The notes: generated by a model not told the origin, from the letters alone. A DNA stretch of 64,000 bases from an uncultured Verrucomicrobiota bacterium (GCA_903907995.1 CAIVQH010000046.1:212396-276395); one strand, 5' to 3'. Counted from the stretch's first letter, positions 21,714 through 46,236 are shown. Numbers and translations are program-made.

Positions 21714-22757
21714 TTACTCCGTAGCCGCCCGCACCGCAATGGCCGGCAGTTTCCGCGTCGTCGCAAAACGGTCCGCCCCCAGCAGCACCTTCGCCAGCAG
21801 GCACAGGAGCGCCAGGGCGAGCGGCGCCTGATACAGCTCGGCGTAGTTCTTCAGGTCCTCGTGCGCCGCCGCCTCGGCCATCGGCGTCAGGATCTCGGAC
21901 CGAAGTTTCTCGAGCGCCTCGCCCGCCTCGTCGAGCCGGTAGTAGCTGCCCCCGGCGGCGGCGGCGAGCCGTTGCAGATTGCTCTCGTTCAGCCGCGAGG
22001 TGACTTCCTGGCCGAACGTGTTCTTGGCGACGCCGCCATAGTAACGGTTCACCGGCACCCGCGCGCCGCCCGGCGTGCCCACACCCACGGTGCAGATGCG
22101 GACCTGCTGCTGCCGGTGGATGCGTCGCGCGACATCCACCGGATTGCCAACGAGGTCCTCGCCGTCCGAAACGATGATGACGAGCCGGGGAGCAACCTGG
22201 TTGCTCACGAAATATCGGCTGGCGCGCTCCAGAGCGGAGGCGAGCGAACTGCCGGGATCTTCGAGCACGTTGGGATCGAGGTAGCGCAGCGTCGTCCGCA
22301 GCGCCGTGGTGTCGAAGGTGAGCGGCGCGTTCAGATAGGCCACGCCGCTGAAGCTGATCAGGCCGATCCGGTCGGCCTTGGTGTTTTCCAGAAAACGGTC
22401 GAGCGCATTGGTCGCCACCGCCCAACGGCTGGGGCGGACATCCGTCGCCATCATCGAGCGCGAGGCGTCCAGCGCCACGAGATAGGGCACGCCTTCCAGC
22501 TCGTTGGCCTCGGTGCGACGGTAAACCAGCGGCCGCGCGAGCGTCAGTCCGAGCATGATCAGGCCCAGGAGGGTGAGCAGCAGATCCAGCCGGCGACGCG
22601 AGGTGGAAAAATTCGGCTTCGCCCAGGCCCGGCCCGTGCCGCCGGCAAAGGTGGCCACCAGCCGTGCCTGCCGCCGCCGCGCCAACGCCAGCCCAAGCCA
22701 CAGCGCCCCCACGAACAGCGGGGTCAGATAGAGCAGGATGGGATGGGCGAATCTCAC
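21714..22757 (-). CDS. batB: BatB-like von Willebrand factor A (VWA) membrane protein
   Basis: GTG start overlapping the batA stop (GTGA); two N-terminal TM helices, then VWA: YLVALDASRSM...RIGLISFSG...VIIVSDGE. The track ORF carries a spurious 177-aa upstream extension. Confidence 0.75.
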   Translation of the reverse strand: MRFAHPILLYLTPLFVGALWLGLALARRRQARLVATFAGGTGRAWAKPNFSTSRRRLDLLLTLLGLIMLGLTLARPLVYRRTEANELEGVPYLVALDASRSMMATDVRPSRWAVATNALDRFLENTKADRIGLISFSGVAYLNAPLTFDTTALRTTLRYLDPNVLEDPGSSLASALERASRYFVSNQVAPRLVIIVSDGEDLVGNPVDVARRIHRQQQVRICTVGVGTPGGARVPVNRYYGGVAKNTFGQEVTSRLNESNLQRLAAAAGGSYYRLDEAGEALEKLRSEILTPMAEAAAHEDLKNYAELYQAPLALALLCLLAKVLLGADRFATTRKLPAIAVRAATE

Positions 22758-23719
22758 GGCAGCCTCCTTCGCAGCAGTTGCGTGCCCAGCAATCCGACCA
22801 GCCAAATGGCCGCCGCTGCCACCACGAACCACGGGAACAGCTCGCGCCACGACACGTAGCGCTTCTGCACCAGCTCGCGTTTCTCCAGCTGGTCGATGAG
22901 CTGGTAGATGCCGGTGAGCGCCCGCGCGTCGTTGGCCTGGAAGAACTGACCGCCAGTCATGCGGGCGACCTTGTTCAGCTCGTGGTTCGCCGCCATGGTC
23001 GGCGTCACCATCTCCGGTCCGATCAGGATTGTGTAAACCTTGATGTGCTCCCGCACCGGCAGCGGGGCCATCTCCAGCGGACGCGGCCCGGACGAATTTT
23101 CGCCGTCGGTGATGAGGATGATGACCTTGCTGCGGTTGCTGCTCTTCTTTAGGAAAGTGGTGCTGGCATTGATCGCCCAGCCGATGCCGGTGCCGGTCGC
23201 CAGCTCGGCCTCCCGCATCGCGTTCATCGCCCACTCGTGATCCAGCGTGAGCGGGCTGACCAGCCATGGCGTGCGGGCGAAGCAAACGATGCCGATGCGG
23301 TCATTCACGCGGCCCTTCACAAAATCGGTGGTGACGTGGACCAGCGCGTCCTTGCGGCTGACGCGGTGGCCGTTCAGCCGGAAATCCGTCTCCGCCATGG
23401 AGCGCGAGTAGTCCAGGGCCAGCATGATGTCGATGCCCTTGCTCGGGTCGGGAATGTCACCCCGGGGCAGTCGTGGCCGCGCCAGCGCCACGATGATGAG
23501 CGCCAGCGGCAGCAGCAGCCCGAACCACCGCCACGCTCCGGAATGCCGGCTCGCCGGCGTCCCCAACTGCGCGATGCCGCGCAGCGTCGGCACCGGTACC
23601 GAGGGCAGCGGACCGCGCCGGCCCAATCGCCACGCAAGCACGGGCAGGAGGAGCAACCCGAGCAGGACCCACGGATTCAGGAATTCCAATCCACCGAGGA
23701 GGGCCAATGACAGCGTCAT
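22754..23719 (-). CDS. batA: BatA-like VWA membrane protein
   Basis: MTLSLALLGGLEFLNPWVLLGLLLLPVLAW...IDIMLALDYSRSM...RIGIVCFAR...VIILITDGENS. Confidence 0.8.
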   Translation of the reverse strand: MTLSLALLGGLEFLNPWVLLGLLLLPVLAWRLGRRGPLPSVPVPTLRGIAQLGTPASRHSGAWRWFGLLLPLALIIVALARPRLPRGDIPDPSKGIDIMLALDYSRSMAETDFRLNGHRVSRKDALVHVTTDFVKGRVNDRIGIVCFARTPWLVSPLTLDHEWAMNAMREAELATGTGIGWAINASTTFLKKSSNRSKVIILITDGENSSGPRPLEMAPLPVREHIKVYTILIGPEMVTPTMAANHELNKVARMTGGQFFQANDARALTGIYQLIDQLEKRELVQKRYVSWRELFPWFVVAAAAIWLVGLLGTQLLRRRLP

Positions 23720-24243
23720 ACAGCGGCTCCTTTCGGCGTGGATCCCTGCCGGATGAATGCCTCGGCCGTGTCGAGAAGATGATCCTGCTCGGCGAGATCG
23801 GCCCCGCGCCGCGCAAATTTCACGAGGTCACAGAAACTGAGAAACGCGCCGAGCGCCTTGCGTTGTGTCTCCGCCAGGGCGGTGTTCTGTCGCGCCGATT
23901 CCAAAAATTCCCGTGTGGTCTGAAAGCGGATCGCCAGCTGGAAACGCCATTCCAGATAATCGCGCAGGATGTCGGAGCAACCCACCGCCAGATCGTAGGC
24001 GGAAAGCTGCGCCCGCCGGCTGCGAAGTTCGGCCAGACGCCGCAAAAACTCGGGATGCAAATCAGGCTGCAGCGGCGGCGGGCTCAGCGCCACGATCTCA
24101 CGGCGGAAAACGCGGCGCAGCATCCAGACCAGAAAAACCAGCGCCACCAGCGCCAGCACGAAGCCGGTGATGGCCCCGGGTGACTGCCACCAGGGCGGCA
24201 GCGGCACGAGCGTCAGGTCGTCGATGAGGTTCGTGCGGTTCAT
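23716..24243 (-). CDS. DUF4381-like membrane protein of the Bat operon
   Basis: ATG at 24243 overlaps the DUF58 stop (ATGA) and its own stop overlaps the batA ATG; single TM (ITGFVLALVALVFLVWML) then helical domain. Confidence 0.55.
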   Translation of the reverse strand: MNRTNLIDDLTLVPLPPWWQSPGAITGFVLALVALVFLVWMLRRVFRREIVALSPPPLQPDLHPEFLRRLAELRSRRAQLSAYDLAVGCSDILRDYLEWRFQLAIRFQTTREFLESARQNTALAETQRKALGAFLSFCDLVKFARRGADLAEQDHLLDTAEAFIRQGSTPKGAAV

Positions 24244-25157
24244 GCCACGCGACGCTTCGCCGCCTGATCGAGAAATTTCTGCAGCCGCTGGGGCCACGCG
24301 GATTCCCGGGTGTCGGTGCGGAGATCAAGTTCCGGCACGCCGCTCAGGCGGCAGAACACCTTCAGCTCCGCCAGCCGCTCTTCCCCGGCCGCGGCGTAGG
24401 CGGCCCGCACCTCGGGATCGCTGGTCTCCAGCTCGATCACCTCGCCCGTCTCGGAGTCCTGCACGAGCGCGAGTCCGACATCGGGCAGCTCCAGCTCGCG
24501 CTGGTCCACGGTGCGGAGGGCGATCATCTCGTGCCGCTGGTTGCTGGCCCGCAACGCCCGCCGCCACGCGGCCTCGTCATGGTCGTGGAAGTCGGACAGC
24601 ACGAACACGAGCGCGGAGCGGTGCAGCAGGTTGTTCAGGAAATTCAGCGCGGCATTCAATGAGGTGCCGGAAGATTTCGGCTCGGTGAAGAGGAGTTCGT
24701 GCAGCAGGCGCGTGACGTGGGCGCGCGATTTCTTGGGTGGCACGAAGCGCTCGATGCGGTCGCTGAACAGGATCATGCCCACGCGGTCGCCGTCGCGGAT
24801 GGCGCTGAAGGCGAGCGCGCCGGCGAGCACAGCGGCGAGCTCGCGCTTCGTGTCCGCCTGGGCATCGCCGCCGGGTGCGGTACCGAAGTGGCCGCTGGCC
24901 GAAACATCCACCAGCAGCATGACCACCAGCTCGCGCTCCTCGATGTGGCGCTTGATGTACGGCTTCCGCAGCCGCGCGGTGACGTTCCAGTCAATGCGCC
25001 GCACGTCGTCGCCGGGCACATATTCTCGGACGTCGGCAAAATCCATCCCGCGCCCCTTGAAAACGCTGGTGAGCCGCCCGCCCATGAGCTGCTCGCTCAC
25101 GATCCGCGCACGGACTTCGACCTGCCGGAGGCGTTTGAGATAGTCGGGGGGGAGCAT
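24240..25157 (-). CDS. DUF58 (VWA-like) protein
   Basis: ADVREYVPGDDVRRIDWNVTARLRKPYIKRHIEERELVVMLLVDVSAS is the DUF58 signature region. Confidence 0.8.
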   Translation of the reverse strand: MLPPDYLKRLRQVEVRARIVSEQLMGGRLTSVFKGRGMDFADVREYVPGDDVRRIDWNVTARLRKPYIKRHIEERELVVMLLVDVSASGHFGTAPGGDAQADTKRELAAVLAGALAFSAIRDGDRVGMILFSDRIERFVPPKKSRAHVTRLLHELLFTEPKSSGTSLNAALNFLNNLLHRSALVFVLSDFHDHDEAAWRRALRASNQRHEMIALRTVDQRELELPDVGLALVQDSETGEVIELETSDPEVRAAYAAAGEERLAELKVFCRLSGVPELDLRTDTRESAWPQRLQKFLDQAAKRRVA

Positions 25158-25160
25158 TGA

Positions 25161-25652
25161 TCACTCCATCTTCCGGCGAATCCATAAGCGCAGGCGGTCC
25201 ACCGGATGGCCTCGCAGGGCCAGCAGCGCCCTGTCGGCATCCGGTCCACCATCCCCGTAGCGGGCGACGATGTCGGTGAGCATCCGACGGCTCTGTTCCG
25301 GATCGGGCACCGGCACGCCTCCCGCCTCCTTCACATACTGAACACCGGCGAGGATCTGGTCGTAACGACCCGCGGCGGATTTCGGCAGCAGGAACTTCTT
25401 CTCGGTCCCCTTCGCATCCGTCAGGGCAATACCGATCGCGCCGCCCTCGGCCCCGTAGTAGTCGATTGAGACCTTGCGGTAAGGTTCCTGCAATCCCTGC
25501 AAATCCGCGGAGACCTTGGCGGGATCGTACCGGCACGGCTCCCGCAGGGTGTAGTAAGTGAGCCCCGCCACGAGGAGGGCGAGCACGACCACGATGACGC
25601 GGATCTTGTTGCGGAGGCTCATGGCGCGCTTCGTGTTAGGGTGATCGGGCAA
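25161..25652 (-). CDS. hypothetical membrane-anchored protein inserted between moxR and DUF58
   Basis: 163-aa ORF (alternative start MSLRNKIRV at 25622), one N-terminal TM helix; no recognisable domain. Confidence 0.45.
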   Translation of the reverse strand: MPDHPNTKRAMSLRNKIRVIVVVLALLVAGLTYYTLREPCRYDPAKVSADLQGLQEPYRKVSIDYYGAEGGAIGIALTDAKGTEKKFLLPKSAAGRYDQILAGVQYVKEAGGVPVPDPEQSRRMLTDIVARYGDGGPDADRALLALRGHPVDRLRLWIRRKME

Positions 25653-25662
25653 CCCAGCCCCA

Positions 25663-26661
25663 TCACGGCACCTTCACCTTGCCCAGCAGCGTCTGGACGA
25701 TGCTGGCGGTCGTCACTTCCTCGGCCTCCGCCTCGTAGGTGAGCAGGATGCGGTGGCGGAGCACGTCGGGGGCGATAAGCTTGATGTCATCGGGGGTGAC
25801 GTGGTCACGCCCTTCCAGCAGCGCACAGGCGCGCGCGGCCAGGGTGAGATTGATCGTGGCGCGCGGGCTGGCGCCGATGCGCACGAGGCGCTTCAGCTCC
25901 GGGGCGACGCCCTGACCGGTGGCAGCCTCGCGGGTGGCGATAACCAGGCGCACGACGTAATCCTTCACCAGCGCATCCACGTGGATCTGGTTCACCAGCG
26001 ACTGGTAACCCAGAATCTCTTCCGGTGATACGACGGCATTGAGGGAAAGGTTCGGGGCCGTCGAGGCCATGCGGTCGAGGATGACCAGTTCCTCCGACGC
26101 GCTCGGGTAGCCGACGATGACCTTCAACATGAAGCGGTCCATCTGCGCCTCCGGCAGCGGATACGTGCCTTCCTGCTCGATGGGATTCTGCGTCGCCAGC
26201 ACGAGGAAGGGCTTGGGCAGCGCCCACGTCTGGTCACCGATCGTCACCTGTCGTTCCTGCATCGCCTCGAGCAGAGCCGACTGAACCTTGCTGGGGGCGC
26301 GGTTGATTTCGTCGGCCAGGACGAGGTTGGCAAAGATGGGGCCCTGGCGCGTCGAATATGTGCCCTTCAGCGGGTCGTAAATGAGCGAGCCGGTGATGTC
26401 GCCGGGCAGCAGGTCGGGCGTGAACTGGATGCGCGAGAACTGGCAGTGCGTGGCCTGCGCGAGCGCACTGACGCTGGCGGTCTTGGCCAGACCGGGCAGC
26501 CCCTCCAGCAGCACGTGGCCGCGCGCGACCAGCGAAACCAGGAGGCGGTGGATCAGTTCGCGCTGGCCGACAATGACCTTGCCGACCTCCGCACGGACAA
26601 GGGCGAGGTGTTCCGCGGCAGCCTTGAGCTGCGTGTTCAGTTCCGGGGACGAGTTGGACAT
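25663..26661 (-). CDS. moxR: MoxR-family AAA+ ATPase
   Basis: VIVGQRELIHRLLVSLVARGHVLLEGLPGLAKT (Walker A), ...LVLATQNPIEQEGTYPLPEAQMDRF (sensor/arginine-finger region); 332 aa. Confidence 0.9.
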   Translation of the reverse strand: MSNSSPELNTQLKAAAEHLALVRAEVGKVIVGQRELIHRLLVSLVARGHVLLEGLPGLAKTASVSALAQATHCQFSRIQFTPDLLPGDITGSLIYDPLKGTYSTRQGPIFANLVLADEINRAPSKVQSALLEAMQERQVTIGDQTWALPKPFLVLATQNPIEQEGTYPLPEAQMDRFMLKVIVGYPSASEELVILDRMASTAPNLSLNAVVSPEEILGYQSLVNQIHVDALVKDYVVRLVIATREAATGQGVAPELKRLVRIGASPRATINLTLAARACALLEGRDHVTPDDIKLIAPDVLRHRILLTYEAEAEEVTTASIVQTLLGKVKVP

Positions 26662-28138: not shown

Positions 28139-28184
28139 GGAACCGCGGTTCGGCGCTAGGAGCGCCTCGCCAGCCATCAAGAAA

Positions 28185-28222
28185 CCGGAAGCCAGCAAAC
28201 TGGCTTCCGGTTTTTTGTTTTT
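28185..28222 (+). terminator. rho-independent terminator after eno
   Basis: ccggaagccag-caaa-ctggcttccgg followed by ttttttgttttt. Confidence 0.75.
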
Positions 28223-28374
28223 GCCCGCTCGCCGGGCCGGGGTCCCTCGGCCTCAATTCATCCCACTTAGGTGGTGTGCAGGTACATCAGCGACCTTCGG
28301 GCGGGGCTATAGGGGCAGTCGCAGATTCTTTGAACCTGGTGCGGGTTTCCAAACACTCTTGTCTTGGCCATCCG

Positions 28375-28968
28375 ATGGATACCCGCCCCCCACCATCACC
28401 GCCAGTCACGGAGCCCGAGCTGCGCGACCTGGACCGCTTGCAGGAGACCCTCTGGGTCGCCCAGGCCCGCGAGGGCGACGCCAATGCTTTCGCCTGCCTC
28501 GTGGCGCGGCACGAACGGCCGCTGTACTATTACCTGCGGCGTTTCATTCCGCAGCCCGAAGCCGCGCTCGACGCGTATCAGGATGTCTGGCTGGACGCCT
28601 TCCGCGGGCTGCGCCAGTTGCGCGCCCCGGAAGCGTTTCGTGCGTGGCTCTACCGGATCGCCCATGACAAGGCCATGCGAAGCCTCCGGCGGGAAATCCG
28701 GCATGAGCGCCAGACCGAACCGCTGGTTGAGGCCCACGAGGCGGTGGCTGAAGCCGCCGAGGAACCGCACGACGCCGAAGCGGTCCATCAGGCACTGAGC
28801 CGGTTGCCTCCGCTTTGGTGCGAGGTCCTGACCCTGCACTACCTTCGCGACCTGTCCCTAGAGGAGATGGCCGCGGTGATCGGCTGCCCGGTGGGCACCG
28901 TCAAATCCCGGCTCCACCACGCGCGCCTCTCCCTGCAACGCCTGCTTGAAAGAAACCGCCATGAATGA
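28375..28968 (+). CDS. ECF-family sigma factor
   Basis: ATG at 28375 (MDTRPPP...); region 2 AYQDVWLDAFRGL, region 4 LPPLWCEVLTLHYLRDLSLEEMAAVIGCPVGTVKSRLHHARLSL. Confidence 0.8.
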   Translation: MDTRPPPSPPVTEPELRDLDRLQETLWVAQAREGDANAFACLVARHERPLYYYLRRFIPQPEAALDAYQDVWLDAFRGLRQLRAPEAFRAWLYRIAHDKAMRSLRREIRHERQTEPLVEAHEAVAEAAEEPHDAEAVHQALSRLPPLWCEVLTLHYLRDLSLEEMAAVIGCPVGTVKSRLHHARLSLQRLLERNRHE

Positions 28969-30145
28969 CCCCCAGCACCACGCCGATTTCGTCAGGAAAC
29001 TCCTCGCTCAGGAGCCGGGTCTGGACGCTCCGGTCTTCGCCGAGCGACGGGTCCTGCTCCTCGCCCGAATCGTGAGCGCCGAACGGCACGAACGCCGCGC
29101 CCGGCTGATCGCGTTCGCGGCGACCACCATTGCCGCCGTCGGAGTTTCCCTGCTCTATGCCGCCGCCATGGGCCGGTTCGGTGAAGCGGCCTTGTGGCCG
29201 GACTGGGCCAAGTATCTCGGCGGCGTCTCGATGATCCTCCTGCCGTTCCTGTCGCTGCTCCTCGTCGCGCTCTATTTCTTCCGGCACCGGCGCGAGTTGC
29301 ACGCCGCCCGTGACGAGGCGTTCCGCGCCAGCCTGGAAGACCTGCCGCGCCAGATCGGCGAGCTTGGTGCCGAGCTGGACCGGCTACGTGCGCGCCTGGA
29401 ACCACCAGCCGGTTTGGCTGAGGGCAAAAAACCTGACCGACGCGCGTTCACGCTGATCGAGATGATGACCGTCATCGCGATCATCGGAGTGCTGGCCGGC
29501 CTTCTTTTGCCTGCGCTCAGCCGGGCCCGAGCCAAAAGCCAGTCATTGGTCTGCGGGAGCAATCTCGGACAGGTTGGCAAGGCGCTCACCCTCTATGAGC
29601 ACGACACCGGGTCCTATCCCGGTGCGGGTTGGTCAGCGCAAGTCACCAGCCAGAGGGTGGTGATATCGCCCGACTCATGGGACATGCGGGTCCGCCCCGA
29701 TCTCAAGGGCAGCACCAACGTCTTTTCCTGCCCCGCATATCAGCCGCCGGATTTCGCCGGCGCCACCGCACCCGCCTACGGTTACAATGCCGGCGGCAGC
29801 TCACCCACCTATGACTTCAGACGGGTGCTCGGCCTGGGCTACGGCGGCGCCTTGCCCGGCTCGCCTCGGGTCCGGTCCGATGACGTGCGCGCTCCCGCCG
29901 ATATGGTGGCCATCGGGGATATCCAGACGCCGCCGGGAGTCTGGTTGAACACCATCACTCCCAACCTGCCCCGGCGGATGGGTGGCCTGGACTCGATCGT
30001 GCCCGATCGTCACAACGGCGGGGCGAACATGGTATTCTGCGACGGCCATTTTGAGTCGGATCGCCAGAGGAATTGGACGCGGCCCACGGAGACGGCTCGC
30101 CGGCGCTGGAACCTCGACGGGCTGCCGCACCCCGAAACGTGGTGA
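28961..30145 (+). CDS. anti-sigma-factor-like 2-TM membrane domain fused to a prepilin-type (DUF1559 / H-X9-DG) pseudopilin-like domain
   Basis: ATG overlaps the sigma stop (ATGAATGA). Residues 1-160: two TM helices plus coiled coil. Residue ~165: KKPDRRAFTLIEMMTVIAIIGVLAGLLLPALSRARAKSQ (prepilin N-terminal methylation motif with Ala, not Gly, at -1). C-terminal ...PDRHNGGANMVFCDGHFESD (H-X9-DG motif). One continuous 394-aa ORF. Confidence 0.65.
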   Translation: MNDPQHHADFVRKLLAQEPGLDAPVFAERRVLLLARIVSAERHERRARLIAFAATTIAAVGVSLLYAAAMGRFGEAALWPDWAKYLGGVSMILLPFLSLLLVALYFFRHRRELHAARDEAFRASLEDLPRQIGELGAELDRLRARLEPPAGLAEGKKPDRRAFTLIEMMTVIAIIGVLAGLLLPALSRARAKSQSLVCGSNLGQVGKALTLYEHDTGSYPGAGWSAQVTSQRVVISPDSWDMRVRPDLKGSTNVFSCPAYQPPDFAGATAPAYGYNAGGSSPTYDFRRVLGLGYGGALPGSPRVRSDDVRAPADMVAIGDIQTPPGVWLNTITPNLPRRMGGLDSIVPDRHNGGANMVFCDGHFESDRQRNWTRPTETARRRWNLDGLPHPETW

Positions 30146-30300
30146 CGGAGAACCAGCAGGCCGGCTGCCTGTTCTTCCGCGCAGCGGTGAACCAGAAATG
30201 CGTTCTTTGGGAATGCCACCCTCACCCGAACGGAGTTTGGACCCTGGCTGTGAAGGGGGTTGAGGTTGACACTGGCAGCTCGGCCAGCGAGAGCATTGCC

Positions 30301-31032
30301 ATGCTGCGCCAGCGCCAGAGGACTTGGATTCCACAACGATTTGCGAACCTTTGGTTCCTCGGGTTTTTGCTTCTTTCAGGCGTGGCGCAGGCCGGTGATC
30401 TGCCCGTACCCGTTGGCTGGTGGCCGGGCGATACCAGCACCATAAATCTGGCGGGGACCAACTCGGCGGTTCTCGGCGGGGGCGGCTATGCCGGCGCGGT
30501 CTTTGGCAAAGGATTCAGTTTTGACGGTCGAAGCAATGTCGTGTCGGTGCCGGACGATCCGAGCCAGCATTCGCCCCGGATCACGGTCGCGTGCTGGGTT
30601 AAGTTCAACGAGCTGCTCACGCCCGGCGCGGCGACTCCGGGCCTGCAGTACCTGATGTTCAAAAGGAGGCCGGCGAACAGCGGCTTTGAGGGTTTTGCCC
30701 TCGTCAAGGACCGGCTGACCGGCGCGGACCGGTTCAAGATCGTCCTCGCGAATGGTCCCGGCACGGCGAACCAGGTGGTGACCCCGGGGATGACAATCGT
30801 GGAAACCAACCGGTTCTACTTCGTGGCGGCCACGGCCGATGGCAGCCACGTGCGCCTCTACGTGGACGGAATGTTGGAAGGCACATCACCGGCGGCCTTC
30901 CCGGTCCAGTGCGGCAGCCAGCCGATGTTTTTCGGATCTTCCGAGGAGTCCTACAACGGACGCTTCAGCGGGGCGCTGGACGAGCCGCAGCTGTTTGACC
31001 GGGCGCTGAGCCAAACGGAAATCCAGGCGTAG
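30301..31032 (+). CDS. secreted LamG/concanavalin-A-like lectin-fold protein
   Basis: ATG at 30301: MLRQRQRTWIPQRFANLWFLGFLLLSGVAQA signal; ...VACWVKFNEL...FYFVAATADGSHVRLYVDGML...GALDEPQLFDRALSQTEIQA is a typical LamG jelly-roll. Confidence 0.6.
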   Translation: MLRQRQRTWIPQRFANLWFLGFLLLSGVAQAGDLPVPVGWWPGDTSTINLAGTNSAVLGGGGYAGAVFGKGFSFDGRSNVVSVPDDPSQHSPRITVACWVKFNELLTPGAATPGLQYLMFKRRPANSGFEGFALVKDRLTGADRFKIVLANGPGTANQVVTPGMTIVETNRFYFVAATADGSHVRLYVDGMLEGTSPAAFPVQCGSQPMFFGSSEESYNGRFSGALDEPQLFDRALSQTEIQA

Positions 31033-31111
31033 AGGACGCCATGCCATCCGTTTCAAAAAGAACGCCCCGGAAGGTGACTTCCGGGGCGTTTTGCTTTTCC
31101 TCCCGTGCGTT

Positions 31112-33169: not shown

Positions 33170-33622
33170 AGGTCAGCCACGCGCCGTGCCTTGACGGCAC
33201 GGTACGTTGGTGCGCGACGGCACGGGGCCGTCACGCGGTTTCATACGGGGTGAACGTGGGGTTCCTGCACACGCAGGATCCCAGAGGATCGCCCTTCCAG
33301 GTGCCGACGGAGTTAGCTGACGGGCTTGGTCTTGGAAGTGACCTTGGCCCCCGGTTACCCGGTGCCGTGCGCCCCCTCCCCGACTTGCGTCGGGGAATTT
33401 GGTTCCCCCGCGCCGGCTTGCAGGAAGGCAAACCGGCTTAGGCTGCTACAGACGGCCGACGAGTGTCACCGGCCGGCCCGCCTGTCAATGGCAATCGGGA
33501 CAAGGCATCAAGCCTGCGCATCCACTGTCGGCTTCTACGCTGGAACTCCCGTCTCCTGAATCCTGTCTCCTGTCTTCTTCCGATTGAACCTTTGCTCGCC
33601 CGCCGCATTCCACTGGATACAA

Positions 33623-34174
33623 ATGCTGGAAGTGGCCGAGTGCGAACAACTGCCCGTGCGGCAAGCCAGGTCCGGATCACCGGAAGCCTGGGACGCGCTG
33701 TTCCGTCGCTACCAGCTGCCGCTCTACGTCTATGTCTTCGAACTGGTCCACCACGAGCAGGTCAGCTTGGATATCGTTCAGGAGACCTTCATCAACGCCG
33801 TGCGCCACCTCGGCAGCCTGCGGGAGGACGCCAAGTTCGGCAGCTGGCTCTTCGGCATCGCCCATCAGAAGTGCATCCAGCGATGGCGCAAACAGGGCCG
33901 TGAGGACCTCCTGCGCGAAGAGTTCACCGGGGCTCCGCCGGAGTTTGAGGAGGGCCCGGACGATCTGCTCATCCGGCAGGAACAGGAGGCCGAATTCATG
34001 AAACTGCTCCAACAGCTCCCGCCGCCGCAGCGTTCCGTGCTGCTGCTGCATTACGTGGAGGATTTTTCGCTCGGAGAGATCGCCGCCGTCACCGCCACGC
34101 AGCCTGGCACGGTGAAGTCACGGCTGCATTACGCCCGGAAGGCCCTGCGCAAATTGGTGGAGGAAACCCCATGA
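33623..34174 (+). CDS. ECF-family sigma factor
   Basis: ATG at 33623; LPLYVYVFELVHHEQVSLDIVQETFINAVRHL, ...LPPPQRSVLLLHYVEDFSLGEIAAVTATQPGTVKSRLHYARKAL. Confidence 0.8.
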   Translation: MLEVAECEQLPVRQARSGSPEAWDALFRRYQLPLYVYVFELVHHEQVSLDIVQETFINAVRHLGSLREDAKFGSWLFGIAHQKCIQRWRKQGREDLLREEFTGAPPEFEEGPDDLLIRQEQEAEFMKLLQQLPPPQRSVLLLHYVEDFSLGEIAAVTATQPGTVKSRLHYARKALRKLVEETP

Positions 34175-34599
34175 AAACCCCGCGTGAAGTTCTGTTCGCC
34201 CGTCATCACACCGCCCAAGCCGGGCTGGATGCCCTCCGGCAGGAAGTGCTGGCGGATTTGCCTGGAAAGCCCGCAGCGATGCCGGCCGACGCCGGAGTCC
34301 GGCCCGGGGTGCGCTGGTCGCTCCGGGAATTTCTCCGGCCGTTCCGCTGGCATCTGGCCGGGTTGAGCGCGGCCTGGTTGCTTGTGGCGATCTTGAACTC
34401 CGAGCCGAGCAGGGCCACGACGCCCGCATTCGCCAGCCAGGACACTCCACCACCCCGCCAGCTCCTGATGGCCTTTCGGGAACACCGGCGCCAACTGTGG
34501 GAACTGCTCCAGCCCCCCGTCGCGGCCGTCCCGACCGTGCCGCATGCATCGGTACCACGGCGCCGAAATGATCCCGCCGTTTCACTCTTCATTGCCTGA
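34171..34599 (+). CDS. putative anti-sigma factor (single TM)
   Basis: ATGA overlap with the sigma stop; one TM (LAGLSAAWLLVAILN); positional assignment. Confidence 0.5.
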   Translation: MKTPREVLFARHHTAQAGLDALRQEVLADLPGKPAAMPADAGVRPGVRWSLREFLRPFRWHLAGLSAAWLLVAILNSEPSRATTPAFASQDTPPPRQLLMAFREHRRQLWELLQPPVAAVPTVPHASVPRRRNDPAVSLFIA

Positions 34600-34602
34600 C
34601 TT

Positions 34603-36135
34603 ATGGACACACCCACTCCGCCGACCGCCTGGGAGCGCACCACCACCCGCCGCCTGCTCCGCTGGGTTTTCCGCTGGCAGACCGTGCGAAGCTCGCTGAT
34701 CGCCCTAGCCTGGGTGGTGACACTCATCGCCCTGCTCTACGGCGAGGAGAACTGGCGTGGACGCCGCGCCTGGAACAAGTACCGGCAGGAACTGGAGGCA
34801 CAGGGTGCGCAGCTGGACCTGCAGGCGTTCATTCCCCCGCCAGTCCCGGACGAACAGAATTTTGCCGCAACACCGTTTGTCATGTCGTGGTTCCCCAGAA
34901 GCGGTGGCGGCTGGGATGACAATTATTCGAAAGCGGCTGAAAAACTTCCGAGTCAGGACACCAGCCGACAGCAGTTCCTGGACTTGGCAGCCTGGGGAAC
35001 GGCTCTGAAAGCCGTCGAAGCCGGCACACTGAAATCGTACCGTCATATCGATACGGGAAAACCGGATGCCGAGTCCCGCACCCAGGCGGCCCCGGCCGTG
35101 CTGGCAGGACTGCAGGCCGACGAGGCGATCTTCCAGGAACTCCGGGCCGCCAGCCTGCGGCCCCATGCCCGCTATCCTGTGATTTACAACTTGGACAATC
35201 CGTGGGGCATCCTCTTACCGCACCTGGCCAAGATCAAAGCCACCTGCTACCGCCTGCGCCTCAGGGCCTGTGCCGAGTTGGCCGTCGGCCAATCCGACCG
35301 GGCACTGGAAGATCTGAAGCTGCTGCTCTACATGGCCGACTCGCTGAAGAATGAGCCGTTCCTGATCTCCTATCTGGTGCGTATTTCCTGCCTGGAACTC
35401 GCCACCCAGCCGGTTTGGGAGGGCCTGTCCGAACATCACTGGACGGCGGGCCAGCTCGAGGAACTTCAGGGCCGGCTTCAACGCTTCGATCTCCTGAACG
35501 ACCTGAGCCGGCCCCGGGCGGCCGAGCGCGCATGCATCATTCTGACCGCCGAACTCCTTTACCGGCAAAAATACCGGCTGAGCGAACTGGCCGAGCCCCA
35601 GTCCGGCTTATCCCCTTCATTGTGGGGAGGGGATTTTGCCAACCTGCTCGGGCGGATCGCGCCGCACGGCTGGTATTATCTGGAGCAGGTCAATGCCTGC
35701 CGTTTCTATCAGAACCAATCGCCCGGGGCCTTCGATCCGGTCCAAAAACGGATCTCGCCACGCCTGCTTGCCGCCGACGCCAAAGAGATGGAACAACAGC
35801 TTTCCAGCCAGATCCTCGCCAGGTTGTTCCAGCCCGTTTTCGCCAAATTCCCGTTCAAGGCGGCGGCGGCTCAGGCCTTGGTGGATCAGGCCGCCCTCGC
35901 CTGCGCGCTGGAACGGTGCCGGCTGGCCGAGGGTCGGTTCCCCGAGAAGCTGGAGGCGCTCGTGCCGCGCTTCATGGCCGATTTGCCCAAGGACGCGCTC
36001 ACCGGCGAACCCTACCGGTATCGCCGTGTCACCGACGCCCAGTTCCTGCTCTATTCCGTCGGGTGGGACGAGAAGGACGACGGCGGCGTATCCGGCAAAA
36101 CGCAGTTTGACGAACAGGGCGACTGGGTCTGGTAG
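34603..36135 (+). CDS. membrane-anchored periplasmic protein with GspG/pseudopilin-like C-terminal motif (third gene of the ECF module)
   Basis: N-terminal TM (SLIALAWVVTLIALLY); C-terminus ...TGEPYRYRRVTDAQFLLYSVGWDEKDDGGVSGKTQFDEQGDWVW resembles the GspG C-terminal segment (...PWGNPY.Y.....D..L.S.GADG..GGEG). Confidence 0.5.
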   Translation: MDTPTPPTAWERTTTRRLLRWVFRWQTVRSSLIALAWVVTLIALLYGEENWRGRRAWNKYRQELEAQGAQLDLQAFIPPPVPDEQNFAATPFVMSWFPRSGGGWDDNYSKAAEKLPSQDTSRQQFLDLAAWGTALKAVEAGTLKSYRHIDTGKPDAESRTQAAPAVLAGLQADEAIFQELRAASLRPHARYPVIYNLDNPWGILLPHLAKIKATCYRLRLRACAELAVGQSDRALEDLKLLLYMADSLKNEPFLISYLVRISCLELATQPVWEGLSEHHWTAGQLEELQGRLQRFDLLNDLSRPRAAERACIILTAELLYRQKYRLSELAEPQSGLSPSLWGGDFANLLGRIAPHGWYYLEQVNACRFYQNQSPGAFDPVQKRISPRLLAADAKEMEQQLSSQILARLFQPVFAKFPFKAAAAQALVDQAALACALERCRLAEGRFPEKLEALVPRFMADLPKDALTGEPYRYRRVTDAQFLLYSVGWDEKDDGGVSGKTQFDEQGDWVW

Positions 36136-41558: not shown

Positions 41559-44500
41559 TCAGCGGGCGGCCACCTCGCCGGTCTCGATCCGCAGGTCGGC
41601 CCAGTAACCGAACTCGTAATGCCAGTTGTTGGCGGCATTTTCGAGCCGCAGCACGACCACCCGTCCCCCGAACTGGCTGAGATCGAGCGACACATCCTTC
41701 CAGCGCGCCCCGTCGTGGGTGACGAGCTGATGATGCAGCAGTTCGCCATCGGCCTTGATCCGCAGTTCCCAATCGCCCTGTTCATGCGCGGCCACGCGGA
41801 AACGCAGCGTCGCCTTGCGACCGGCGGGCAGCATCAGCTTCTTCACCAGGGCGGCGGGCGTGCGTTCGTCCACCGGATGGGTCATCAGCACGTTCGCCTG
41901 GCCGGCGAACTCCGGGTACTTGCGCGGTGCGCCCTCGAAGGCCGGACTTTCCACGCGCCAATCCGGATTCCACAACGCGACCGATTCGCCATCGGAAGAA
42001 CCGGCGGGATCGGCGAGCGCCTGGTCGGGATTCGTGCCGATCAGCTCCAGCTTCCGCTGCTCGGTGAGCGGCTGGTTGTCGCCGGGCGGCGCGAGGATGA
42101 ACCAGATGAGGTTGCGGAAGTCGCCATCGGGCATCTGCTCCAGGCCTTCGGGCATCACGGAATTTTCCGTCACGCGCAGCGACTTCACCCTGGCCTTGTC
42201 GATGATCATTTCACTGGGGCCGGCCATCACCAGCTTCACGTGGGTCGCGACGTTCTCGGTCATGCGCCCGCTGAAGGTCTGGTCGTCCTTGGTCTCGACC
42301 TCCACCTGCTCGTAGCCCTGGCCGATGATCTCGTTCGGATTGATCACGTTGTGCAGCAGCGCGTCGAGCGAGCTGCGGCCCACGCCCGTGAGGTCGGGCC
42401 CGATCTCCGCGCCCTCGCCGTAAAGCTTGTGGCAGACGAAGCAGGTCTTTTTCGCGACCTCATGCCCGGCAGCAATATCAACAGGGCCGCTCACCACGAC
42501 CTTCCGCTTCGCGGCGATGACCTTGAGCTTCTCCGCGCTCGACGCCTGGACCTTGCCGAAGATCTGCACGGCGCGTTCGCGCTCGTTCACATTCTGCGAG
42601 GTGGCCAGCGCCCGGACGACGGTGGGTGGAACGTCACCGCGCTTCACCGCACCCGCCTCAATTGCGCGGTAGAAGGGCCACTTCCAGCTGCTGCGCGTGG
42701 TGCACAGTTCCGCGACGGCGGAACGCACGGAAGGCGTCAGGCCGCCCCATGCCTCCAGCAATCCTTTCACGGTATCGTCCGCTCCCACATCCGCCAGGCC
42801 GCGCACGGCCTCGACCCTGAGTTTGTCCGAGGCATTGCTGCGGAACACCGTCAGCAGCGCCTCGCGGGTGTCATCGGTCTTAAGCCGGCGGGCGATGCGG
42901 ATGGCCGCGATGCGGTCGGCCTCGCTGGCCGAAGTGTCCGTGACCCGCGCCAAGCTGGCCTTGATGGCCGTGGCGTCGCCCCAGAGCGAGCCGATCTGCT
43001 GCGCGGTCTTGGCGATGTCGCCGTTGGGTGATTGCGCGAGCTTGGACACGACCGCAACCGCCGCAGGGTTGGGCGTAAGCGCCTTGCCGCGCTGGCCCTC
43101 CAGCAGCCCCTGCAAACCCGCCACGATCGCCGGCGTGGCGTCGGCGGGAATCTTGCCAAACTGTAGCACGGCACGGCTCAGCATGTCCTCGTCCCGCAGG
43201 TCGCAGGTGCGGCGCATGATTTTGGTGAGAATCATGGCCGAGAAGGGCAGCTCGCGTTGTGCCCCGTCGCCTTCGTAAGCGCCGATGGCGTGAACCGGAT
43301 CGAACGCGACAATCGGTTCCAGTGCCATCCAGTAGAGGAATTCCAGCGTAGGATCGTTTTCGCCCTTGGTGCGATCGCGATAGCCGACGAACAGCGTGCT
43401 GAGCAACGGACCGGTGATGACTTCAGTGATGGGGATCCGGGGCGGAAGGTCCACGGTGAGCGCCCCGGAAACAAACTGCCGGGCCGCCACGGCCACGGCA
43501 AGGCGCACCGTGGGATCAGCATCACGAGCGAGAGTCGTGAGGCGTTCCAAGGCAGTGCCCAACGGATAGCCGCGTTCGCCGGTGAGCCGTGCGGCCCACG
43601 AGCGGACGGCCGGGTCCTTGTCCTTCGCCACCTCGTCCAGAAAGCTGTCCTCTAACAGACCCATGCCGTGCAACGTCCACAAGGCGGCCAGGCGGGCTTC
43701 CATCGTGGCCCCAGTTTTCGCCATTTCATGGATCGGCGTCTCAGCGTGAAGTTGGGACGGCCCAAAGGCGCTGAGACCGCGTCCGGTGAGGACCCGCTGG
43801 GCCATGCGACGCTGCCACACGTTGGGATGCGCGAGGAGCTTGGCCAGTTCGCCGCTGGAAAGCTTCGTGAGGTCCATGTCCTTCGACGGACGCGAGGGCA
43901 CGGGCTTGTTCGCCTGGTCGCCAGTCCACACCACGCGCCAGATGCGGCCGCGTTCGCGGTCCACGCCGGCGGGATCGGCGTTGGCGTTCTGGTAGCACGG
44001 ATACTTGTCATACCAGTCCATCACCCACACCGCGCCATCCGGCCCGGTCTGCGTGCTCACGGGCATGAACCAGCCGTCCTTCGTCGTCATGAAATCACCG
44101 CTCTCGGTCCATTTGCTGGCGACAAAGCTCGATCCCTTCGGTGTGAGCCGGTCGATGTTGATCGCATTTTGATGGATGTTGCCATGCAACGCCGCGCCCT
44201 GCCATTCCGCCGGCCACTGGTCGCCCTGATAGATGTCGATGCCGGCGTAGGCGGCCATGTGGTGCTTGTGATCCACGATGCTTGGGAGCTCGCCGTAGGC
44301 ATAGGGGAACGGCGGCTGACCGGCCTGGCGGGAATAGAGGCCGCCGGGTGTGAGGTGAAAGAGGTGGTCGATCACGCACGCGCTCACGAAGGCATTGCCC
44401 TTGGAGTCAAAATCCACACCCCACGGATTGCTCGTGCCCTCGGCCCAGACCTGGAAGTTGCGCGTCTTCGTATCCAGCCGCGCCACTCCGGCGCTAACGA

Positions 44501-45176
44501 TCACCGGCACCGCGTTCGGATTGCCCGGGTCCTTGGCCTTGGTGGCGGTGAAGACGCCATGCGTCATGTAAAGTCCGCCATCCGGCCCCCAGGTGAAGCC
44601 GTTCAGCAGTTCATGCCGATCTTCGAGACCAAAGCCGGTCAGCACCTCGGTCTTTTCATCCGCGACATCGTCGCCGTTCGTGTCGCGCATGAACCACAGG
44701 TGTGGTGCCTCGCCGACATACACGCCGCCGTCGCCGACGAGCAGCCCCGTGGCCAGCGACATGCCATCAGCGAAGACGGTCACCTTGTCCGCGACGCCAT
44801 CCCCGTCGGTGTCCTCCAGAATCTTGATGCGGTCGCGGCCCTTCTCGCCGGGCTTGGCGCCGAGCGGATACTCATAAAGCTCCAGCACCCACAGCCGCCC
44901 GCGCTCGTCGAACGACATCGCGACGGGATTCACCACTTCCGGCTCGCTGGCAAACAGGCGCACCTGGAAACCCGGCGGCACGACGAACGACTTCTGCTCG
45001 TCCGCGGGCGAAAGTGCGGGATTGTCCGCCGGCTTGTGCTGACCCACCAGCTGCTTGCCCGAGGGCGCGTTGGTGTAGATGGGAAAGCCGAACTTGGGAT
45101 GGACCGTCTGCGCGAGCGCGGCGGAAGCCACGGTGAACAACAGCACGGCGGATGACAGGGGCAGGGGCAGCTTCAT
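41559..45176 (-). CDS. large secreted PVC-type protein: glucose/sorbosone-dehydrogenase-like beta-propeller + HEAT repeats + cytochrome c domain
   Basis: ATG at 45176 gives signal MKLPLPLSSAVLLFTVASAALAQ. N-terminal propeller segments (GRLWVLE..., DGGLYMTHG...). Central HEAT-like repeats (DPAVRSWAARLTGE..., DPTVRLAVAVAAR...). CxxCH heme motif CFVCHKLYGEGAEIGPDLTG. C-terminal ~250-aa beta domain. Confidence 0.7.
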   Translation of the reverse strand: MKLPLPLSSAVLLFTVASAALAQTVHPKFGFPIYTNAPSGKQLVGQHKPADNPALSPADEQKSFVVPPGFQVRLFASEPEVVNPVAMSFDERGRLWVLELYEYPLGAKPGEKGRDRIKILEDTDGDGVADKVTVFADGMSLATGLLVGDGGVYVGEAPHLWFMRDTNGDDVADEKTEVLTGFGLEDRHELLNGFTWGPDGGLYMTHGVFTATKAKDPGNPNAVPVIVSAGVARLDTKTRNFQVWAEGTSNPWGVDFDSKGNAFVSACVIDHLFHLTPGGLYSRQAGQPPFPYAYGELPSIVDHKHHMAAYAGIDIYQGDQWPAEWQGAALHGNIHQNAINIDRLTPKGSSFVASKWTESGDFMTTKDGWFMPVSTQTGPDGAVWVMDWYDKYPCYQNANADPAGVDRERGRIWRVVWTGDQANKPVPSRPSKDMDLTKLSSGELAKLLAHPNVWQRRMAQRVLTGRGLSAFGPSQLHAETPIHEMAKTGATMEARLAALWTLHGMGLLEDSFLDEVAKDKDPAVRSWAARLTGERGYPLGTALERLTTLARDADPTVRLAVAVAARQFVSGALTVDLPPRIPITEVITGPLLSTLFVGYRDRTKGENDPTLEFLYWMALEPIVAFDPVHAIGAYEGDGAQRELPFSAMILTKIMRRTCDLRDEDMLSRAVLQFGKIPADATPAIVAGLQGLLEGQRGKALTPNPAAVAVVSKLAQSPNGDIAKTAQQIGSLWGDATAIKASLARVTDTSASEADRIAAIRIARRLKTDDTREALLTVFRSNASDKLRVEAVRGLADVGADDTVKGLLEAWGGLTPSVRSAVAELCTTRSSWKWPFYRAIEAGAVKRGDVPPTVVRALATSQNVNERERAVQIFGKVQASSAEKLKVIAAKRKVVVSGPVDIAAGHEVAKKTCFVCHKLYGEGAEIGPDLTGVGRSSLDALLHNVINPNEIIGQGYEQVEVETKDDQTFSGRMTENVATHVKLVMAGPSEMIIDKARVKSLRVTENSVMPEGLEQMPDGDFRNLIWFILAPPGDNQPLTEQRKLELIGTNPDQALADPAGSSDGESVALWNPDWRVESPAFEGAPRKYPEFAGQANVLMTHPVDERTPAALVKKLMLPAGRKATLRFRVAAHEQGDWELRIKADGELLHHQLVTHDGARWKDVSLDLSQFGGRVVVLRLENAANNWHYEFGYWADLRIETGEVAAR

Positions 45177-45278
45177 GCGGAGAACTTCCCACACACTGAC
45201 GAAGAAGCCCCGGCGGTCAATTCACGACTCGCCGGGGCTGGGAAAAGATTGTGGTGGCGGTGTCGGACAGGACCGCGT

Positions 45279-46058
45279 CTACCACCAGAAGTATGGCGTG
45301 CCGGTTTCGATTTTCGTGCGGACCACCATTTTCGGGAATTTCACGAACTCGGCATGGCCATCCAGCATCAGTTCGTTACCGCCGATCGGCAGCCCGTGGT
45401 CAACATGAGGCGAGGAATGCGGAATTTTTTTTCCTTTGGCATCCTGCCAGCCGCCGATGATCTGGGTGAAGTTGTTGCCCTTGGGATCCCGGACATTGTA
45501 GTTCGACAACGTTCCGTCGGCGGCGACGACGCGCGCCGACGGTCCCGGGTCGAATTCCGCCCCGCCCGTCATTTTCCAAGCCTTGGGATTGAGCGACTCC
45601 GTGATGTTTGTGTCGTGTACCCGCCCGGCACCCTTGAACGCCACGGCATAGCCGATCACGCGGTAGCCGACTGCATTGTCCTTGGCGATCTCGTTGGTCG
45701 TACCCACCGTGAAGGACCACAGCGAATTGTCGTTTTGCTTGGCGAATGAAGGACAATACAGAATGTTCCGCTGGCCGCCGTTCTTCACGAACGCGTTGGC
45801 GGCGGATGCCGGAAGGTCCCAGGGCCAGACCGCGCCAGTGCAGTCGGGGAACTGCTCCTTGTTGTCGTCCGCATACATGCGGATGGCGATGCCCAGCTGC
45901 CGTATGTTGCTGTTGCACTTGACCTGAAGCGCCTTGGCCTTCGCCTTGGCCAGAGCCGGCAACAGCATCCCCGCCAGGATGGCGATGATCGCGATCACGA
46001 CGAGCAGCTCAATGAGCGTGAAGCCCCGGCGGACCGGACGGAAAAAATGAGCATTCAT
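45279..46058 (-). CDS. prepilin-type N-terminal cleavage/methylation domain protein (DUF1559 / H-X9-DG family)
   Basis: ATG at 46058: [43 protein letters not shown] (canonical G-1 F+1 ... E+5); C-terminal ...[17 protein letters not shown]. Confidence 0.8.
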
Positions 46059-46236
46059 AAACGATCTGACCACAAACCCGTGTGGGCACGCCAAGACGTG
46101 TCGGTTTTGCGGGCTACGCTCACAAGGAAGCACCGGCTACCTTGAGCGTCCATGAGCTTGCGCGTAATTCTGCTGAAATTTTTCACGCGCGAACTGCCGT
46201 CTTCAACGTCACCCCATCCTCGGCTATAGAGCCTCC

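Follow-up and report, generated by a model that had tools for sequence, protein, structure and literature searches.

A 64,000-nucleotide stretch of DNA from an uncultured Verrucomicrobiota bacterium (GCA_903907995.1 CAIVQH010000046.1:212396-276395; the whole stretch is called the window below, and positions are counted from its first letter) carries at 28375-31032 a gene for an extracytoplasmic function (ECF) sigma factor, followed by a gene whose product joins a membrane domain with two predicted transmembrane (TM) segments, here called the N-domain, to a type IV pilin-like domain. Based on comparison with related loci, we favour with moderate confidence the reading that this locus is the fused form of a conserved module of Verrucomicrobiota-type bacteria, consisting of a sigma factor, a two-TM regulator and a DUF1559-type pseudopilin, and that the fusion product would be a cleavable pro-protein of which the regulator part reads the pilin. 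A functional link between the sigma factor, the two-TM protein and the pilin is strongly supported by these comparisons; that the sigma factor is bound, that the fusion is cleaved, and which signal acts in which direction is what we infer from them. The features that carry the argument are the following.

28375..28968, + strand: gene for an ECF (group 4) sigma-70 factor of 197 amino acids (aa), with ATG at 28375 and TGA at 28966-28968
28961..30145, + strand: fusion gene, 394 aa plus stop, ATG at 28961, an open reading frame (ORF) with no internal stop
28961..29395, + strand: N-domain, presumed anti-sigma module, aa 1-145 of the fusion protein, placed by hydropathy, lysine and arginine (K+R) counts and helices of the AlphaFold2 (AF2) model
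29396..29446, + strand: linker, aa 146-162, with the leader-like end KKPDRRA and a predicted prepilin-peptidase site between A162 (29444-29446) and F163
29447..30142, + strand: pilin-like domain, aa 163-394, starting with FTLIE and a hydrophobic alpha1 helix; C198 and C257 in the globular head are invariant, and the C-terminal tail is RRRWNLDGLPHPETW
30005..30049, + strand: H-X9-DG motif, aa 349-363, RHNGGANMVFCDGH (TIGR04294, 23.7 bits, cut-off 19)

Conservation of the fusion and its split relatives

The fused gene recurs in related sequences. Full-length orthologues were found at 72, 66, 54, 52 and 38% identity with a query coverage of 99-100%, and a near-identical 394-aa product is represented in a cluster of at least 90% identity by 11 contigs from three sources. 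At 50% identity, 15 clusters contain N-domain/pilin fusions of 383-430 aa or fragments of such fusions, a count in which the relatives from the N-domain search and the matches from the profile search are combined. The orthologues and clusters confirm the proposal of the initial annotation, made from the sequence of the window, that an anti-sigma-like domain and a pilin are genuinely joined in one ORF. The same annotation had pointed to positions 29430-29460 as the place where a frameshift could have joined two genes. Such an artefact, or a pilin produced from an internal start, is conceivable in that the split operons described below overlap by ATGA, so that one indel would fuse them, and several metagenomic relatives are visibly frame-broken (L019, L020). 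We nevertheless regard it as extremely improbable, because the ORF is uninterrupted in the 11-contig cluster, the frame is kept in the 72-38% orthologues as well as in the 15 fused clusters, and the linker has no conserved in-frame start codon, with none at all in the last 30 codons of L017 and L018. Both the frameshift artefact and internal initiation were therefore ruled out.

In three relatives with long contigs (L010/L011, L012/L013 and L014/L015) the same parts are encoded by three separate genes in the same order: an ECF sigma factor, a two-TM protein of 152-153 aa and a pilin-like protein of 242-245 aa. The sigma gene and the gene for the two-TM protein overlap by 8 nucleotides (nt) at L012-L015 and by 4 nt at L010, which has a fragmented sigma gene, and the two-TM and pilin genes overlap by 4 nt (ATGA). 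The pilins of these operons have leaders of 5-7 aa (MKTRA↓FTLVEML, MKRNA↓FTLVEML and MKRTYFA↓FTLTELL, with the arrow at the predicted site) and end in the same tail as the window protein, ARRRWNNDHxPHxETW. As the split relatives share the gene order, the sigma factor and this tail, the window gene corresponds, to judge from these comparisons, to the second and third genes of a conserved operon of three, merged into one. On the same comparative grounds the link between the N-domain module and a DUF1559-type pilin is under selection, the two being fused in 15 clusters and encoded by adjacent, overlapping genes in the split operons. A neighbour-joining tree of the N-domain groups the fusions in a single mixed clade, and the clades with only split forms are basal. 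Degraded relatives were also seen: L016 (195-876) has a stand-alone N-domain followed by only a remnant of the pilin tail (..NENAPHLETW), and in L019 (77-1240) and L020 (64-919) the pilin part lies in broken frames. At L012, the split operon is followed by a gene for a DUF7133/HEAT protein.

The pilin-like domain was identified by several profiles. At aa 160-183 the fusion protein scores above the cut-offs of N_methyl (PF07963; 29.6 bits, cut-off 21.2) and of TIGR02532 (27.8 bits, cut-off 16.3), and H351, D361 and H363 of the H-X9-DG motif are invariant. Three domain models had been proposed at the outset for this region; TIGR02532 and TIGR04294 match above cut-off, and PF07596 (DUF1559) stays below it on the window protein (18.6 bits, cut-off 23.3, with only aa 189-229 aligned), although most close relatives do have precomputed PF07596 matches. 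A profile built from the fusions aligns to mature PulG/GspG from residue 1 (5wda, E=2.9e-13) and to many type IV pilins. When the domain was modelled with 65 relatives, the predicted local distance difference test (pLDDT) reached 90.4 and the predicted fold was that of a pilin, a long alpha1 helix packed on a beta-sheet; with this model Foldseek gave significant matches for the helix only. C198 and C257 fit a periplasmic head.

Pilins with the same tail also occur as free-standing proteins (P0008, P0010) that do not adjoin sigma genes, and the sigma-linked pilins are thus, as far as this comparison goes, a specialised subset of a larger paralogous family. A further free-standing pilin within the window had been used for comparison in the initial annotation, which gave it as 45279-46058; its gene actually spans 45279-46133 on the minus strand. 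It encodes 284 aa with RRG↓FTLIELLVV, scores only with N_methyl, and adjoins a gene for a 1211-aa DUF7133/HEAT/cytochrome c protein (41559-45194).

The N-domain and its sigma factor

The start of the fusion gene and the end of the sigma gene overlap by exactly 8 nt, ATGAATGA, which agrees with the overlap coupling that had been noted from the window sequence, with the ATG at 28961 and the sigma stop at 28966-28968. The sigma protein consists of regions 2 and 4 only (Sigma70_r2, PF04542, 52.1 bits, E=5.5e-14; Sigma70_r4_2, PF08281, 50.4 bits, E=1.8e-13). It passes the general ECF model TIGR02937 with 84.6 bits at a cut-off of 42.9, and with 71.5 bits it is a non-member of the Rhodopirellula/Verrucomicrobium subfamily TIGR02989 (cut-off 124.55). 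Directly 5' of the fusion there is an orthologous sigma gene in all fused loci for which the sequence reaches far enough (L001-L004, L005/L006, the P0005 contig, L007, L009, L017 and L018), and its overlap with the second gene ranges from 4 to 17 nt across these loci together with L012 and L014. Wherever the sequence allows a judgement, the N-terminal two-TM module thus always appears translationally coupled to an orthologous ECF sigma gene, and the expected co-conservation of the two was found. The sigma gene 5' of P0002, the 72%-identical orthologue, is frame-split in two assemblies, a metagenome-assembled genome from NCBI and a Logan assembly (L005, 1307-1804; L006, 159-750), so that the two assemblies share an error or the gene is in decay.

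Upstream of the sigma gene a conserved promoter-like motif was found.

28329..28356, + strand: putative autoregulated ECF promoter, with a -35-like TTTGAACC at 28329-28336, a 14-nt spacer and a -10-like AAACAC at 28351-28356

The pattern TTTGAAC(C)-N15-17-(C)GAC(AC) is present 610-633 nt 5' of the second gene in all eight loci that have upstream sequence (8/8), and it looks like the usual autoregulated ECF promoter, which suggests a corresponding activity. The -35-like element occurs once in the 64-kb window, at 28329-28336; the scan of the window for the promoter motif gave no further copies, so no regulon members can be named.

The fusion protein has three hydrophobic segments, at aa 47-71, 83-109 and 161-190, and K+R counts of 9 for the N-terminus, 1 for the 14-aa loop between the first two segments and 11 for the segment after the second. 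Because of this distribution of positive charge, we predict that the N-terminus is inside, the short WPDW loop outside and a helix of about 50 residues inside again, with the pilin part reaching the outside through the third span; the counts fit this topology. The N-domain would accordingly be made up of a cytoplasmic two-helix part (aa 1-46), a TM hairpin (47-71 and 83-109) around the periplasmic WPDW loop, and a cytoplasmic helix (110-145). In the AF2 model the helices of the domain run from 5-16, 24-69, 81-126 and 128-145; after residue 145 the chain is disordered over 146-163, where the pLDDT is below 50, and then enters the long pilin helix.

A search with aa 1-159 against 1.84 billion cluster representatives defined the N-domain as a family of its own with 55 relatives, mostly stand-alone proteins of 140-160 aa. 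About 100 Arg-rich cytoplasmic helical residues are conserved in it. The scan of the genome collection for the domain found one locus, L009, and the scan of metagenomes found four loci, with no clean split operon of the close clade among them; the broad alignment of the domain was too diverse for patterns. In a basal clade, the single 829-bp contig L023 (1-829) carries an N-domain gene (P0149) whose start shares 8 nt, ATGAGTGA, with the end of the ORF before it. Only 26 nt of that ORF are on the contig, so that it is unconfirmed as a sigma gene, and downstream there is a minus-strand gene instead of a pilin gene. P0151 (388 aa) has the same N-domain and a third TM segment, followed by an unrelated C-terminal region of about 230 aa with no pilin. 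Together, P0151 and L023, the latter being one short contig, suggest that sigma factor and two-TM protein form the core and that the pilin joined them later. Both would suit an anti-sigma unit whose partners can be exchanged, and P0151 in itself suggests a modular regulator core.

We consider the N-domain to be a candidate anti-sigma factor, and infer this from its invariable coupling to the sigma gene, from the roughly 100 conserved cytoplasmic helical residues and from its predicted topology. Of the earlier description of the N-terminal 160 aa as anti-sigma-like, the two TM segments and the position are upheld, and a likeness to known anti-sigma domains is not part of the picture. Profile searches of Pfam, NCBIfam and the PDB with the domain returned generic TM and coiled-coil noise and no family; no anti-sigma family was found in Pfam or NCBIfam at E<=1, and no anti-sigma chain among the PDB profile matches even at E<=10. 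Sub-threshold likeness was seen only to families of two-TM hairpins, such as Holin-X and PspC-TM. These results would suit a different role, in which the N-domain is a dedicated membrane partner of the pilin, for instance a chaperone for its insertion or assembly or a factor for docking, and the sigma factor does no more than transcribe the operon and is controlled otherwise. Physical fusion to the pilin also suits such a pilin-centred role. However, in every locus the 4-17 nt overlap couples the gene to the sigma stop; at L023, one short contig, the N-domain gene overlaps its upstream ORF, of which 26 nt are seen, with no pilin at hand; and some 100 conserved Arg-rich cytoplasmic residues are not expected of a chaperone that works only in the periplasm or membrane. 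We therefore give the partner role only a small chance of being correct.

The junction and the proposed mechanism

The residue before FTLIE (position -1) is Ala162 in the window fusion. The initial annotation took Gly to be the rule at this position in free-standing members of the family, and Ala to be a substitution that should disfavour cleavage and keep the pilin domain tethered, and it asked whether this substitution is conserved. Our counts contradict the rule and do not support the argument built on it. The closest pilin relatives in which the motif can be recognised number 116, and the residue at -1 is Ala in 102 of these and Gly in 14; in the 92 of them with the motif in their first 40 residues, Ala is found in 80 (e.g. 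MKPKRA↓FTLIE). The pilins of the split operons have Ala as well, and 9 of the 15 fused clusters have the canonical Gly. Ala is thus the norm of the subfamily, and its role as a fusion-specific block of cleavage was ruled out by the counts in the relatives, the split operons and the fused clusters. PilD-type enzymes tolerate Ala at -1, and since it dominates in the free-standing relatives, we expect that the cognate enzyme accepts it.

Alignment of 16 fusions (34-72% identity) showed F at +1, T at +2, L at +3 and E at +5 to be invariant, F163 and E167 of the window protein included, and only A or G at -1 (9 and 7 sequences). Positions -12 to -2 are hypervariable and gapped. The motif is in this way the best-conserved part of an otherwise hypervariable junction, and its conservation beside such a linker argues for cleavage over tethering. 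The predicted topology places the site on the cytoplasmic face, which is the side on which prepilin peptidase cuts (PMC4471445).

According to the mechanism that we propose, the split form would be the older arrangement, with three translationally coupled genes and a pilin that has an ordinary short class III leader. In the lineage of the window, genes 2 and 3 would have merged and the old leader would have become the disordered cytoplasmic linker, which still ends in a G/A↓FTLxE site. The precursor would insert with three TM segments, and a cut at the cytoplasmic face after A162 would yield a two-TM regulator of about 160 aa and a mature pseudopilin, as in the split operons. The cytoplasmic helices of the two-TM protein may hold the sigma factor, and its TM hairpin may read the membrane pool or the processing state of the alpha1 helix of the partner pilin. 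Recruitment of the pilin to a type IV filament or pseudopilus, or its depletion, would free the sigma factor to drive the operon from its own TTTGAACC-type promoter. A more specific form of this proposal, which we put forward only tentatively, is that prepilin peptidase serves as the processing protease of an ECF regulator: it would cut a three-TM pro-protein at a class III site behind a polytopic 162-aa leader, free the pseudopilin for assembly into a filament and leave a two-TM anti-sigma factor behind, so that the activity of the sigma factor reports on pilin processing or on how many DUF1559 pilins pass through a type IV filament machine.

Alternatively, in line with the initial annotation, the fusion might never be cleaved, and the pilin-like domain would then be the permanent periplasmic sensor of a three-TM anti-sigma factor that signals by ligand binding or by regulated proteolysis of the pilin-like domain. 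The length of the leader speaks for this: class III leaders are hydrophilic and 6-26 aa long (PMC4471445), and in the window fusion the motif is preceded by 162 residues with two TM segments, far outside this range. The fusion is moreover stable across 15 clusters, and P0151, with its third TM segment and unrelated extracytoplasmic region, resembles the usual modular design of anti-sigma factors. That the ORFs scanned around the locus yielded no pilus or secretion machinery also suits this reading. Against this, the argument from Ala at -1 fails, positions -1, +1, +2, +3 and +5 are conserved beside the hypervariable linker where a junction that is never cleaved would not need it, and the split operons indicate that the parts work as separate polypeptides, with a pilin that has a normal short leader. 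We judge a permanently tethered sensor to be the foremost alternative, but rather doubtful.

Several observations weigh against the cleavable, pilin-reading regulator that we favour. A leader of 162 aa with two TM segments is unprecedented as a substrate of prepilin peptidase, and the conservation of F1 and E5 could also reflect intramembrane contacts with no cleavage. No gene for a prepilin peptidase, a type II secretion system or a type IV pilus was found among 20 neighbouring ORFs, covering about 14-50 kb of the window. The failure of the profile searches to connect the N-domain with an anti-sigma family belongs here as well. The AF2 model of the whole fusion is only moderately confident (pLDDT 65.7), and Foldseek gave no usable match with this full-length model, in which confidence is moderate and helices are long. 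Finally, at least some proteins of the mixed clade that seem to stand alone come from fusions with a broken frame (L019, L020), which leaves the number of fusion and fission events uncertain.

Surroundings of the locus and related systems

The sigma and fusion genes are followed by a third gene and lie between two terminator-like hairpins.

28178..28217, + strand: upstream terminator-like hairpin, an 18-bp stem followed by a T-run, which ends the enolase gene and forms the 5' boundary of the transcription unit
30301..31032, + strand: gene for a secreted LamG/concanavalin-like protein of 243 aa (Laminin_G_3, E=4e-22) with a signal peptide
31059..31092, both strands: bidirectional terminator-like hairpin, a 15-bp stem with T-runs on both strands, which forms the 3' boundary of the unit

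The hairpins bracket the sigma, fusion and LamG genes, and none was found between the three. The GC content at third codon positions is 0.79-0.80 in these genes, compared to 0.93 in the enolase gene and 0.89 in the gene for an SPFH protein. As the LamG gene shares this lower value and has no terminator-bounded unit of its own, it is probably co-transcribed with the other two at this locus. The shared lower value over 28375-31032 could mean a lower expression class or joint acquisition. In no other locus that we examined was a LamG gene found downstream; there we found a chorismate synthase gene, a beta-lactamase-family gene, a permease-like ORF, a gene for a lipase/DUF7133 protein, or an unannotated ORF followed by Fic. 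The LamG gene was therefore placed outside the conserved module and rejected as its third component: the first description of it as a secreted lectin-fold protein stands on the domain match and signal peptide, and its membership in the module does not.

The wider neighbourhood contains a BatA/MoxR/DUF58 operon, the enolase gene, the SPFH protein gene and a second, conventional-looking ECF unit (33584-34599). The operon upstream of enolase (22754-26661, - strand) encodes BatA/VWA, DUF4381, DUF58 and MoxR-type AAA+ proteins. The second ECF unit extends over 33584-36135 (+ strand) when its last ORF is counted: a sigma gene (33584-34174) shares an ATGA overlap with an ORF for a 142-aa single-TM protein (34171-34599), and the last ORF (34603-36135) encodes a 510-aa protein that has a TM segment at its N-terminus and matches no Pfam family.

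The module resembles the membrane-anchored ECF pairs sigmaE-RseA, sigmaV-RsiV and CnrH-CnrY in that a two-domain ECF sigma factor is co-transcribed with, and coupled to, a small membrane protein with a cytoplasmic N-terminus, and in having a GAAC-type promoter-like motif 5' of the sigma gene. In its short N-terminus of two cytoplasmic helices, the N-domain is reminiscent of CnrY, a minimal class II anti-sigma factor. Unlike these pairs, the N-domain has no sequence or profile similarity to anti-sigma domains; it has a TM hairpin with both ends in the cytoplasm, whereas they have one TM segment and a periplasmic domain; and its extracytoplasmic partner is a type IV pilin-like protein, which is adjacent or fused through a class III junction.

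Regulators that read pilins are known from other bacteria. The TM segments of PilS of P. aeruginosa read the inner-membrane pool of PilA through the N-terminal helix of the pilin, as stated in PMC6058289, which cites Kilmury and Burrows 2016, and PleC of Caulobacter likewise senses PilA (PMC7196804). As in PilS-PilR and PleC, we propose a regulator that reads the inner-membrane pilin pool through the N-terminal helix and feeds back on transcription; the likeness is one of proposed mechanism only, and the interaction would be by analogy. In the module described here the signal would end in an ECF sigma factor and not in a histidine kinase and response regulator, and no HisKA or HATPase domain was found in the fusion protein or its neighbours. 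The sensor, in contrast to PilS and PleC, would be a two-TM protein of a new family that shares an operon or even a polypeptide with the pilin.

The pilin part itself resembles GspG/PulG and type IVa pilins in having G/A↓FTLxE followed by a hydrophobic alpha1 helix. It differs in its larger head (about 180 aa), the H-X9-DG motif and the tail RRRWNxDHxPHxETW, as well as in the 162-aa, two-TM leader of the fused form and the lack of machinery genes nearby. The export checkpoint of FlgM and sigma28 also makes the activity of a sigma factor depend on how a surface-filament machine stands; FlgM, a soluble protein, is itself exported. In another case a truncated PilA activates AlgW-MucA-AlgU, an example of a pilin acting on an anti-sigma pathway of the ECF type (PMC3684759). 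In that case, the mutant C-terminus of the pilin acts on a periplasmic protease. Unlike the module described here, neither the FlgM nor the AlgU system involves a fusion or a sigma operon with a pilin gene of its own.

In the literature that we searched, no ECF module with a linked or fused pilin is described, and pilin contexts are not mentioned in the main text of the ECF reclassification paper. DUF1559/H-X9-DG pilin-like proteins are scarcely mentioned since 2015 in the literature searched, in which we found no function for them. Few gene families of Planctomycetes and Verrucomicrobia have expanded to a similar degree. A conserved operon, which is sometimes condensed into a single polypeptide, now ties one DUF1559 subfamily to an ECF sigma factor and a new family of two-TM regulators, and this raises the hypothesis that such bacteria monitor the membrane pool or the processing of a pilin at the level of transcription. 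To pilus biology, it poses the question whether a prepilin peptidase can process a two-pass membrane leader of 160 residues, and to ECF signalling it offers a candidate anti-sigma family that resembles none of the known ones and a new kind of input. Should prepilin peptidase indeed be the processing protease here, this class III leader would far exceed every known one in length, and no ECF pathway before it would have been gated by the biogenesis of a pilin; for the hugely expanded DUF1559 family it would be the first clue to a function.

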